DNA of 5,261 nucleotides, taken from positions 1 to 5,261 of the forward strand of contig JAWBCC010000009.1 of the NCBI GenBank assembly GCA_038823825.1. The letters are read 5' to 3'. The translations under genes and the position numbers were made by a program. Source of the DNA: Candidatus Hadarchaeales archaeon. Its GTDB lineage: Archaea; Hadarchaeota; Hadarchaeia; Hadarchaeales; Hadarchaeaceae. The notes beneath the pieces were generated by a model. That model worked only from the letters and a program-made list of their open reading frames with translations, had not been told where the DNA came from and did not search any database. Below are positions 876 to 5,261 of the stretch, in pieces; positions within the stretch are counted from its first letter, which is position 1, and every line of letters begins with the position of its first letter.

Positions 876-3611
876 TCACGTCCACCCCGTCCGCATCAAC
901 ACCCCAAAATCACGGCGAGAGAGAACTTCAGTACAGTCACGCCAATCCTTGTCCGACGGTTCGGCGGTTGCCCGGTAACGGAGATCGAACCCGGTCGCCT
1001 CGCGCTGAGCGCTGATGTATTCGTCCATCTTCTGCCCAAGCGTCTCAATATCGTCGATCCACTCGTCCTTTATCGTGTCTGGTAATGAGCCGAATAGGTT
1101 GTATCGGTCGCGCATTCGTTCCGACAGCCGTTCGTAGACCTTTTCGTCTACTGTTTGCTCGTTAACTAGATTCAGCATGTCGACCTTCTCACGAGCCTGG
1201 CCGAACCGCTTGATGCGCCCGATGCGCTGCTCTAGCCGCGTTGGGTTCCAGGGCAGGTCGATATTGATCAGTGTCCCGAGGGTCTGAAGGTTTAGCCCTT
1301 CGCAGGCGGCATCCGTCGCCGCCATGATCTTGATCTCGTGTTCGGCGACCATCTTTTTCAGCGTCTCACGCTCGATGCTGACGCTCTCGCCCTTTTGGTA
1401 GAGCCGGCTGCGTGACGCCCCGGCATAGAGGCCGATCGCCTGTTCGGGAAACCTCACAGCCAAGGAGTCGGCGACCCATTTTGCTGTGTCGTAGTATTGA
1501 CTGAAGATGATCGCTCCATGATCGCGCCATTTTTCGCGCTCAAGGAAGTGGATGGTGGCCTGAAGCTTTGGATCGACCTCAATCCGCTCCAAGCGTCCGA
1601 TCAGCTGTTCGAGGACGGCTCTCTCTTCGGTGCTTTCGACGGCAAGCTCGATCTCCTGGTCTTCCGTTTCTTCCTGCACTGTGCGTCCCGCGAGAAGCGT
1701 TCTGGCAGTACTTAGGCCCGCCGCGATACTCGAGCATATCCGCTGCTCCATGAGATTCTTCATAAAGCCGCTGCCTTTCCCCCGCTTCGAGATCGCCTTG
1801 CCGAAGGCGCGGGCCTCGCGATAGGCCTCCCGAAAATCGTCACTGGTCCGAAGAGCTTTGCCCTCGAACAGCGCGTCAAATCGCTGTGTGTCCCGGATGA
1901 ACTGGCGATCGGGGTGGAGATCGACCCCGATCTTCGGAAGGAGGCCCGCTTCTTCGAGATCGACCCGTTTGCGCAGCACAATATGACGAATGAAGGGGTT
2001 TTCGCGCTGGAAGAATGTCGCCCCGGAAATCTCGCGTTCAAGCTCCTCTTCGAGGATCTCGCGTGTATCATCAGAAAGCTGCGTAAGTGAGGCGCTGCAT
2101 TCCGTCTGCCGATCGGGCAAGGCAAGGTCTTGGCGGATCGCGCTGATGAGACGTCTTGCTCGCGGTTCGTTGGTCGAATTGACCAGTGGGAGCGGTGACC
2201 GCAGCAGTTCCCATGCTAACTCCGCTTCCGCGACGTCGCTCTGGCCCGAGATAATGGGCAAAACCGCCTGTGGCTTGTGCCAGCGCGCGTAATCATTGCC
2301 GAGGACAAAGCGACCCTTGCCTCGATGAAGAATGCGCATCAGGTCCCATAGGTCTTCGGACCGTGTCTGGATCGGAGTGGCGGTTCCAAGAAGCACGTGA
2401 TCGCTTCGCTCGGCGATTGCTTGCGCAAATGCCAGAAGCTCGTTGGGAGTGCCGGCATTGCTTCCAAAGCCTTGGCGGCTGCGTGCCTTGTGGGCCTCAT
2501 CGAGGATCACCAATCCGAAGCGGAGCCCCATTAGGTGCTGCTTCTCAGGGCTGTCCCGCATCATCAGGCCGGTCGAGACGATCCCAATCCTTAAGGGGCA
2601 GCGCGCGATCTGCTCCCGTCCAACCGGGGAGATCGCGCGATCTTCAGGATCGAGCCAGACCTTCTTTTGAGTTTCCCAGCGAGCGCAGGGAATTCCCAGC
2701 TTGTCGATCATCTCGGTCTGCCATTGCTCACACAGCGTCGCGGGAGCGAAGATGACGACTGGCCTCTGCCCTCCCGTCTCCTGAACTTGAAGAAGGCAAA
2801 GTGCCAACGCTGCAGTGCCGAGCGAAAGCGTTTTTCCGAGCCCCACCTCGTCCGCCAGGAGAAGGCGGACGATCCCATGATTTTCGTGATGACGAATGCA
2901 CTCAGTCAGAAAACTCTGTTGCCAGGGCTGAAGCGAGAAGCCCTCGCGATAGAGCGGTGACTCGATCAGCGCGGCTGGCGCGAGGTCCTCTGGATCCTCG
3001 ATCTCGTCGAACAACACCTCGCGGCGATAGCCCCGTCGGCGAACTTCGCGAATAACAGCGCGCGGCAACTCCTTTGCTGCCCGCCAAAGGAATTCGAACT
3101 CTTCCTCGATCCACGCCACGCCTTCTGGCGAAGAGTCCTCCCAGAGAATTTCATAGTGCCGCTGCCAGCCACTGCGCGTCTCGTTCATGGAACCGATGAA
3201 GCCAAGCTTGCGTCCGTCAGCGCACTCGATCACGCCGGCCTTGCCGTGCAGGAAGCCGCAGATATCATCGGGGGCGACCCGGACTGCCTGGCCGTGCTTT
3301 TGAAGAAAGGCGTCCAGGCGGCGATAGCGTTCGCGGTTCAGCAGTGCTTCGGCCTCCGGGGAGCGCTCGTTCCAGCGCCCGATCATTTTGGCCTCGCGCA
3401 GCTGGGCGACTTTCAGATCATCCGGGTGGATATCGACATTGCAGACGATCTTCACCTCGGGGATCTCGTCCAGCAGTTCGCCAGCCACCTCGAACAGCGA
3501 ACTAGTGAAGTAGCCGGCAATGCGCTTGTAGCTCCGGGCACCTTTCAGGTGCTCCAGAAGGACCGTCTGATCGAGCCGTTGCTTGCGCGAAGAGAAGCGG
3601 CGGATGGTCAA
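876..3611 (-). CDS. Fusion of a PLD-family (single HKD) nuclease domain and an SNF2-family helicase/translocase, 911 aa
   Basis: The N-terminus carries an HKD motif, LHGKAGVIECADGRKLGFIGSMNET (H122..N143, nt 3183..3248). SNF2/SF2 motifs follow: motif I LLADEVGLGKT (nt 2829..2852 for DEVGLGKT), motif II VILDEAHKAR (DEAH at nt 2490..2501), motif III LLGTATPIQ, ATDAACEGLNLQ, and motif VI DLPWNPTRLEQRIGRIKRFGQ (nt 1197..1229). The start is TTG at 3609..3611, the only canonical start after the in-frame TGA at 3660..3662. GAGGGG lies 10 nt upstream. The stop is TGA at 876..878. Confidence 0.9.
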   Translation of the reverse strand: MTIRRFSSRKQRLDQTVLLEHLKGARSYKRIAGYFTSSLFEVAGELLDEIPEVKIVCNVDIHPDDLKVAQLREAKMIGRWNERSPEAEALLNRERYRRLDAFLQKHGQAVRVAPDDICGFLHGKAGVIECADGRKLGFIGSMNETRSGWQRHYEILWEDSSPEGVAWIEEEFEFLWRAAKELPRAVIREVRRRGYRREVLFDEIEDPEDLAPAALIESPLYREGFSLQPWQQSFLTECIRHHENHGIVRLLLADEVGLGKTLSLGTAALALCLLQVQETGGQRPVVIFAPATLCEQWQTEMIDKLGIPCARWETQKKVWLDPEDRAISPVGREQIARCPLRIGIVSTGLMMRDSPEKQHLMGLRFGLVILDEAHKARSRQGFGSNAGTPNELLAFAQAIAERSDHVLLGTATPIQTRSEDLWDLMRILHRGKGRFVLGNDYARWHKPQAVLPIISGQSDVAEAELAWELLRSPLPLVNSTNEPRARRLISAIRQDLALPDRQTECSASLTQLSDDTREILEEELEREISGATFFQRENPFIRHIVLRKRVDLEEAGLLPKIGVDLHPDRQFIRDTQRFDALFEGKALRTSDDFREAYREARAFGKAISKRGKGSGFMKNLMEQRICSSIAAGLSTARTLLAGRTVQEETEDQEIELAVESTEERAVLEQLIGRLERIEVDPKLQATIHFLEREKWRDHGAIIFSQYYDTAKWVADSLAVRFPEQAIGLYAGASRSRLYQKGESVSIERETLKKMVAEHEIKIMAATDAACEGLNLQTLGTLINIDLPWNPTRLEQRIGRIKRFGQAREKVDMLNLVNEQTVDEKVYERLSERMRDRYNLFGSLPDTIKDEWIDDIETLGQKMDEYISAQREATGFDLRYRATAEPSDKDWRDCTEVLSRRDFGVLMRTGWT

Positions 3612-5261: not shown

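Follow-up and report, generated by a model that had tools for sequence, protein, structure and literature searches.

A probable distal half of a known four-gene restriction-modification-like anti-phage operon, with a premature stop in its methylase gene, on a contig labelled Hadarchaeales

What does a pair of co-oriented genes, one for a DNA methyltransferase and one for a nuclease fused to a helicase, represent when it lies at the edge of a short contig attributed to an archaeon: a small restriction system in its own right, a piece of a larger one, or the remains of something that no longer works? This question is raised by contig JAWBCC010000009.1 of assembly GCA_038823825.1, labelled Candidatus Hadarchaeales archaeon, which is a complete GenBank record of 5261 bp that ends inside the methylase gene and which is, in its full length, the stretch analysed here (hereafter, the window). 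Both genes lie on the minus strand, at the positions where a first-pass annotation made from the sequence alone had placed them. The explanation that we hold with high confidence is that the window contains the distal half of an already known restriction-modification (RM)-like anti-phage operon, whose order would be a DUF499 AAA+ ATPase, a DUF3780 protein, a DUF1156 N6-adenine methyltransferase and a phospholipase D (PLD, of the HKD type)-Swi2/Snf2 helicase-nuclease, and that this operon is the terminal cargo of an island inserted into the initiator-type tRNA-Met gene that closes an rRNA operon of a Rhodobacterales-like alphaproteobacterium.

The helicase-nuclease, which would be the effector of the system, joins a PLD domain to an SNF2 motor within one protein of 911 residues, as the first-pass annotation had read from the sequence, and the Pfam families PLDc_2, SNF2-rel_dom/ResIII and Helicase_C are all recognised in it (Table 1). 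It reaches 1213 bits with the NCBIfam model NF042964 ('phospholipase D-like domain-containing anti-phage protein'; cut-off, 1100 bits) over residues 1-910, and 1399 bits with the PADLOC model PDLC02193 (PLD_Helicase). A scan with this protein, taking one genome per species, returned 218 relatives, the best 80 loci of which were retained, and identity to these relatives amounts to 72-90% over the full length. In the alignment with the 80 relatives, the single HKD motif HxK(x)4E (HGKAGVIE, which includes H122 and K124), the GSxN motif (aa 140-143), the Walker A motif GLGKT (aa 257-261), the DEAH box (aa 371-374) and the GRIKR of motif VI (aa 798-802) are all invariant, so that the H122/K124 and DEAH residues named at the outset are indeed present and shared by the whole set. 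Moreover, out of 482 columns conserved at 97% or more, the protein of the window deviates in two, both times conservatively, and therefore the gene is regarded as intact. Its start codon is TTG, and the starts in the family (the window included) are ATG in 68 cases, GTG in five and TTG in three, the aligned first codon being no start codon at five further loci; the idea that the TTG might be a sign of attenuation was rejected, since two relatives also start with TTG and five with GTG. Among solved structures, the helicase region matches RapA and ISWI, that is, generic SNF2 cores, and the profile of the PLD domain finds SauUSI (7clg_A) as its best solved relative, followed by Zucchini/MitoPLD and NucT.

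The methylase gene is visible only in its 3' part, with approximately 420 codons of its 5' part beyond the contig end. Pfam gives no match on the 500-aa fragment, since the DUF1156 domain proper occupies the N-terminus (aa 19-81 in the homologue of Thioclava, which is full-length) and so falls outside the contig. The assignment to the family is consequently based on models that cover the full-length protein. The NCBIfam model NF042963 ('anti-phage-associated DUF1156 domain-containing protein') gives 709 bits over profile positions 422-919 of 960, a score that stays under the 1000-bit cut-off only because those approximately 420 residues are missing, and the PADLOC model PDLC02189 (DUF1156_MTase) gives 773 bits. 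The DPPY tetrapeptide (motif IV) is invariant in 70 relatives. A search of the PDB for solved methylase members found none. The first reading as a DPPY methyltransferase of the DUF1156 type is thereby borne out; profile searches, which had been proposed as a check, place both proteins in named NCBIfam and PADLOC families, and these being dedicated defence-family models, the suspicion of an RM-like anti-phage module also holds.

Are these two genes the whole system? The relatives answer in a fairly uniform way. All four genes stand in one fixed order at each of 66 four-gene loci, and of the 57 relatives for which 9.5 kb or more of upstream sequence is available, 55 carry DUF499, DUF3780, DUF1156 and PLD-helicase in that order, which agrees both with the usual partnership of DUF1156 methylases with DUF499 and DUF3780 proteins and with the expected co-occurrence of homologues of the two proteins seen here. 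The closest relatives, with 87-90% identity in the PLD-helicase, all have the four genes. The annotated plasmids of Methylocystis heyeri and Mesorhizobium mediterraneum carry DUF499, DUF3780, DUF1156 and the PLD protein; in Thioclava sp. FR2, Pfam recognises DUF499, DUF3780 and DUF1156, and the four proteins match PADLOC PDLC02189-02193, a single consecutive set of models for exactly these four proteins. A reduced variant, in which the methylase and the PLD-helicase alone would make a minimal RM-like system with neither DUF499 nor DUF3780, is very unlikely in the face of these numbers. What speaks for it is that the DNA upstream of 5261 is out of view, that some variation in locus composition has been reported (PMC12839542) and that in one relative (L011) the 3.1 kb preceding the PLD-helicase contain no methylase; the two exceptions among the 57, however, are a decayed copy (L006, from Jannaschia rubra) and a locus where an insertion moves DUF499 out of the examined stretch (L080), and none of the closest relatives shows the reduced state.

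Table 1. Features located in the window (positions on the forward strand of the 5261-bp record; aa, amino acids).
Feature	Position	Strand	Evidence
Intact 911-aa PLD(HKD) nuclease-Swi2/Snf2 helicase fusion (effector)	876..3611 (including stop)	-	Open reading frame, NF042964, PDLC02193
PLD/HKD nuclease domain, aa 19-176	3084..3557	-	Pfam PLDc_2, E = 4e-11
H122-K124 of the HKD motif	3240..3248	-	Alignment with 80 relatives
SNF2/SF2 helicase N-lobe, aa 226-432	2316..2936	-	Pfam SNF2-rel_dom and ResIII
Walker A motif	2829..2843	-	Alignment with 80 relatives
DEAH box	2490..2501	-	Alignment with 80 relatives
Helicase C-lobe, aa 682-804	1200..1568	-	Pfam Helicase_C, E = 2.9e-14
DUF1156-family N6-adenine methyltransferase, 3' part (500 codons and TAA)	3757..5261	-	NF042963, PDLC02189
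Hypervariable methylase segment preceding DPPY (aa 51-150, counted in the visible part)	4810..5109	-	Identity to 70 relatives
DPPY (motif IV)	4783..4794	-	Alignment with 70 relatives
Premature in-frame TAA in the methylase gene	3757..3759	-	DNA alignment with the 7 closest relatives
Orphaned methylase 3' end: 40 codons and ancestral TGA (3634..3636)	3634..3756	-	Frame continues as ARRLLIDMLGFIERKAPEKEVRDAAEVLGGRMKNLRVFGQ and then stops
22-nt block GGTCAACAATAGGTCAACCGGG between operon and att, with two GGTCAAC repeats 11 nt apart	820..841	-	22/22 in Thioclava
49-nt 3' fragment of bacterial tRNA-Met(CAT), rRNA-operon (initiator) type, anticodon stem to CCA	635..683	-	Identity to Paracoccus denitrificans

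Many relatives carry extra genes inside the operon. At one locus (L053, 5221..6938), a DarT ADP-ribosyltransferase and a macro-domain protein, a DarTG pair, sit between DUF3780 and the methylase; at another (L020, 7260..9990), a ParA-like ATPase and an unknown 480-aa protein sit between the methylase and the PLD-helicase, and approximately 20 other loci have similar gaps. In contrast to them, the window has no embedded gene between methylase and PLD-helicase. Furthermore, the identity levels mentioned above extend across Alpha-, Beta- and Gammaproteobacteria, Nitrospira, Opitutaceae, Thermodesulfobacteriota, Anaerolinea and a Clostridiales metagenome-assembled genome (MAG) (loci L003-L082), and such strong conservation between phyla indicates that the PLD-helicase has often been transferred horizontally in recent times.

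The architecture has been described as the 'Type-2 BREX-related system' (Type-2 BR), found in 1120 taxa by comparative genomics (Rakesh & Krishnan, NAR 2026; PMC12839542). It consists of a DUF499 AAA+ ATPase, a DUF3780 protein that stands alone (98% of the taxa have it), a DUF1156 N6-methyltransferase and a helicase of the Swi2/Snf2 type in which an HKD endonuclease takes the N-terminal place of the Tudor domain; the authors of the description predict an RM-like action (PMC12839542). The window agrees with it in several respects: both proteins match at equivalog level, the helicase of the Swi2/Snf2 type carries the HKD nuclease at its N-terminus, the co-oriented DUF1156-family gene, which codes for a DPPY methylase with a variable insert, lies directly upstream of the PLD-helicase gene, and gene order and orientation coincide in the relatives. 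The differences are that the contig carries no more than the last two genes and that the methylase stops short by 41 residues.

Could the two genes belong instead to one of the better-known systems that combine similar parts? The first-pass annotation had seen in them the logic of type I/ISP restriction and of DISARM, as well as a match to the helicase-methylase-ATPase candidate Hma. Hma is the sister Type-1 BR system, whose helicase ends in a PD-(D/E)xK nuclease (PMC12839542) that is required for defence in Halomonas (PMC11232893). It shares with the operon described here a tripartite logic and homologous parts (the Snf2 helicase-nuclease HmaA, the DUF1156 methylase HmaB and the DUF499 ATPase HmaC). 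However, HmaA begins with a Tudor domain and ends with a PD-(D/E)xK nickase (PMC11232893), whereas the protein of the window has an N-terminal PLD nuclease, and Hma has no DUF3780 gene, whereas the Type-2 BR relatives of the window have one. The scores point in the same direction, since the HmaA model reaches 126 bits (in the helicase core only) and the HmaB model 31 bits, compared to 1399 and 773 bits for the dedicated models; the match to Hma had thus been put too strongly. DISARM (DrmA, DrmB, the PLD protein DrmC, the SNF2 protein DrmD and DrmMI/MII) also unites methylase, PLD and SNF2 functions, and DrmD is the next-best helicase match of the window protein. Nonetheless, PLD and SNF2 are separate in DISARM and fused here, the partner genes of the relatives are DUF499 and DUF3780, with no DrmA/DrmB or HsdS seen, and the DrmD equivalog models stay far from their cut-offs (NF038317, 182 bits for a cut-off of 610; NF038318, 129 bits for a cut-off of 950). 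Type 3 BREX (the BrxC ATPase, the PglXI methylase and the BrxHII helicase) should also be mentioned, because the BR systems are said to derive from the same triad of ATPase, methylase and helicase (PMC12839542) and the PglXI and BrxH models give weak matches here. Type 3 BREX has no dedicated nuclease domain, unlike the protein of the window, and there is no PglZ, BrxA, BrxB or BrxF context here. More generally, the similarity of the helicase core to DrmD, HmaA, BrxH and DpdE, and that of the methylase to HmaB and PglX, is weak to moderate; in the PADLOC comparison, the former four do not exceed about 150 bits (148 at most, in the helicase core only), so that the dedicated models score approximately ten-fold higher. 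Membership in Hma, DISARM or a type I/ISP restriction enzyme was rejected on these profile scores, and we consider it extremely unlikely.

A different kind of likeness is that with SauUSI (PDB 7CLG), the type IV ATP-dependent restriction enzyme of S. aureus, in which the same N-terminal PLD domain with a single HKD motif, HxK(x)4E, precedes an SF2 ATPase. The similarity is low and confined to the PLD domain (E = 4.6e-5), and SauUSI, which is directed at modified cytosine, brings an SRA-type recognition domain of its own and lacks a methylase partner, whereas the protein of the window has a methylase partner and a helicase of the Swi2/Snf2 type. SauUSI dimerises via its nuclease domains, which pre-forms one active site, and its target-stimulated ATP hydrolysis drives translocation before cutting (PMC7913695).

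The methylase, for its part, has a conspicuous segment. The mean identity to 70 relatives is 0.29-0.31 in the hypervariable segment preceding DPPY (Table 1), versus 0.78-0.86 in the methylase core, and the nucleotide similarity to relatives breaks off near 4800. A target-recognition domain (TRD) insert has been reported at this position of the methylase (PMC12839542), and the hypervariable segment is presumed to be such a swappable target-recognition insert. Its GC content drops to 0.52-0.56 and its best match is not in the closest overall relatives but in a gammaproteobacterial homologue (L025), both of which suggest that the recognition module has been exchanged.

On the basis of the SauUSI-like PLD domain and the variable methylase insert, cleavage by a PLD dimer on an SNF2 motor, with self DNA marked by methylation, is proposed. 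The methylase, by means of its variable target-recognition insert, would mark a host adenine at a short asymmetric motif, and hence on one strand only, and this adenine methylation would serve as the self mark. The DUF499 ATPase and the SNF2 motor would provide two ATPase activities that license self methylation and the attack on unmarked DNA, in line with the title of the MANTIS preprint cited below. The PLD-SNF2 protein would dimerise through its single-HKD nuclease domains to build one active site and, much like SauUSI, would translocate with ATP and cut unmodified invader DNA, with DUF3780 acting as an accessory or reader component.

Has the gene set a characterised mechanism, and under which names? 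A four-gene 'restriction-like' system was reportedly validated in E. coli by Gao et al. in 2020. We take Gao_RL of DefenseFinder and GAO_29 of PADLOC to be the same system, composed of these four families. The PADLOC system GAO_29 has been stated to act by a restriction-like mechanism (PMC10855318, citing Gao et al. 2020). In addition, a preprint of 24 September 2026, entitled 'Dual ATPase-activated DNA hemimethylation and cleavage by the MANTIS defence system' (bioRxiv 10.64898/2026.09.23.753747), appears, judging from its title and from the terms that occur in it, to give the mechanism of this gene set. The terms counted include Gao_RL (4 occurrences, one of them in the abstract), GAO_29 (2), BREX-related (4), DUF499 (2), PLD (6), AAA+ (13), helicase (12), asymmetric (10) and hemimethylation (10). 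To the extent that such counts can tell, it is very probable, if not proven here, that Type-2 BR, Gao_RL/GAO_29 and MANTIS are one system. The gene set is in any case already known, with its own NCBIfam and PADLOC models, a comparative-genomics description of 2026 and its family name in GenBank, and the initial statement that its mechanism is uncharacterised is out of date, considering the Type-2 BR description, the dedicated models and a preprint that, from those same terms, apparently deals with the mechanism.

What distinguishes this copy from its relatives lies in the last part of its methylase and had escaped the first-pass annotation. Between the two open reading frames, 145 nt had been taken for a gap; they are not intergenic, and hold the conserved, orphaned 3' end of the methylase gene, in a frame that aligns past the TAA with the C-termini of the methylases of the relatives (Table 1). 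At the position of the TAA, the codon is GAA (Glu) in the seven closest relatives, and Glu is encoded by 70 of 70 aligned relatives, in a column conserved at 97% or more; 76 of 78 relatives can be aligned up to the genuine C-terminus of the methylase without any internal stop. The TAA removes 41 conserved C-terminal residues, presumably, from their position, part of the C-terminal triad of helix-turn-helix (HTH)-like elements of PMC12839542. The methylase frame is thus neither complete nor uninterrupted here, which bears on the function of this copy and not on its family identity. Conservation is equal in the orphaned tail and in the remainder of the methylase (0.77 in both), and because the codons past the stop are still conserved, the TAA is either a nonsense change of very recent date or an error of assembly or sequencing. 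The nonsense codon may mean that the locus is attenuated or heading to decay.

Taken further, the same observation could mean that the locus is a decaying or inactivated remnant, a member of the family that no longer works in its host, with the methylase knocked out and the upstream genes perhaps lost. The stop at a Glu conserved at this level, the conservation of the lost tail and the fact that this tail is missing in none of the 78 relatives are compatible with it, and so are the nested IS66 elements next door. A precedent also exists, since the close relative L006 keeps, at 9699..12736, only the last approximately 92 aa of the methylase, has neither DUF499 nor DUF3780 in the 10 kb upstream, and has a PLD-helicase frame broken near 11338-11348. 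On the other side, the PLD-helicase of the window is fully intact, with its two conservative changes in 482 conserved columns; the codons beyond the stop argue for a very recent change or an error in a short MAG contig; and a nuclease that stays active once its methylase is gone should be toxic and soon be lost. On balance, we regard the remnant as somewhat unlikely.

How did the operon come to lie where it does? A 49-nt stretch (Table 1) repeats without a mismatch the 3' part of the tRNA-Met(CAT) that follows the 23S-5S rRNA genes in Paracoccus denitrificans, and it is 96-98% identical to many Rhodobacterales copies. No complete tRNA was found in the window, and an Rfam scan of it gave no match. 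The similarity to native tRNA ends at 683, where the operon-side DNA starts, and the flank at approximately 599-634 still resembles the native downstream flank of the tRNA. A 3' tRNA fragment joined in this way to its native downstream flank is what a displaced att copy should look like where an island integrated in a tRNA gene has its far end. In Thioclava sp. FR2 (L010), the orthologous PLD-helicase gene is followed by the same tRNA fragment, of 45 nt (12922-12966), and a P4-type tyrosine integrase stands immediately upstream of the DUF499 gene; such an integrase was seen in Thioclava only. The view of the operon as the last cargo before an att repeat is therefore sustained, as the tRNA-Met fragment is real and its junction recurs in Thioclava.

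As a side note, the Thioclava locus is compact, with the P4-type integrase, the four-gene operon and the tRNA-fMet 3' fragment within 1617..12966, and no intact tRNA, second att copy or other island end was found in the 10 kb upstream of it. Between the operon and the att fragment, a 22-nt block is shared with Thioclava sp. FR2 at 22 of 22 positions (L010, 12761-12782) inside an otherwise poorly conserved spacer. The window has no further copy of the heptamer that the block contains twice, and the pair is not significant by itself, since 19 of 200 shuffles also reach two copies; the block may be an arm-type recombinase site. On the other side of the att fragment, nested elements of the IS66 family occupy 1..594. 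The first (minus strand; TnpA gene at 19..405) has its terminus GTAAGCGTCCGG at 467..478, continues off the left contig end and is inserted in the 3' end of the second (plus strand), of which the last approximately 32 TnpC codons and the terminal repeat ending at 594 remain. The open reading frame at 407..574 is a chimera that spans the junction of both.

All these pieces also bear on the label of the contig. A homology search finds the 911-aa protein, 100% identical, as NCBI MEM1689934.1, deposited as 'MAG: phospholipase D-like domain-containing anti-phage protein [Candidatus Hadarchaeales archaeon]'. Its closest relatives are alphaproteobacteria, the matches of the tRNA fragment and of the flank downstream of it are in Rhodobacterales, and the IS66 ends match Paracoccus elements. 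Because protein relatives, tRNA fragment, flank and IS66 elements are all Rhodobacterales or alphaproteobacterial, the contig is probably a mis-binned bacterial (Rhodobacterales-like) contaminant of the Hadarchaeales MAG. It should not be counted as evidence of the four-gene system in Hadarchaeales archaea.

Some points weigh against reading the window as the distal half of that operon, or limit how far such a reading can be taken. DUF499 and DUF3780 would lie beyond the contig end at 5261; the extension proposed at the outset is not possible, the record being complete, a 50-mer scan of metagenome contigs gave no match, and the completeness of the operon at this locus is thus an extrapolation. 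The premature stop, together with the absence of the approximately 420 N-terminal methylase residues from the data, means that function is not to be assumed. Decay does occur in the clade, as the remnant in Jannaschia rubra illustrates. The equation of Type-2 BR with Gao_RL/GAO_29 and MANTIS rests on the DefenseFinder and PADLOC definitions and on word counts. Finally, the mechanism outlined above is a proposal drawn from the family.

What, then, is to be retained from this locus? It is a partial and possibly damaged copy of a known and annotated system, ordinary apart from the premature stop of its methylase, and it carries little weight for discovery; its practical outputs are a methylase with a nonsense-truncated tail, the apparent position of the operon as terminal cargo of a tRNA-fMet island in Rhodobacterales, and the recognition of a probable contaminant. 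The stop itself allows one further thought. It is unlikely, yet conceivable, that the TAA is real and tolerated, which would make this a natural allele that lacks the conserved 41-residue C-terminal helix pair of the methylase while keeping an intact nuclease-helicase. If this were true, the tail would be dispensable for self-protection, for instance because it only couples the methylase to the restriction complex; alternatively, its loss would be the first step in the silencing of the system. Either way, the allele would indicate which region of the methylase ties modification to restriction in systems of this family.

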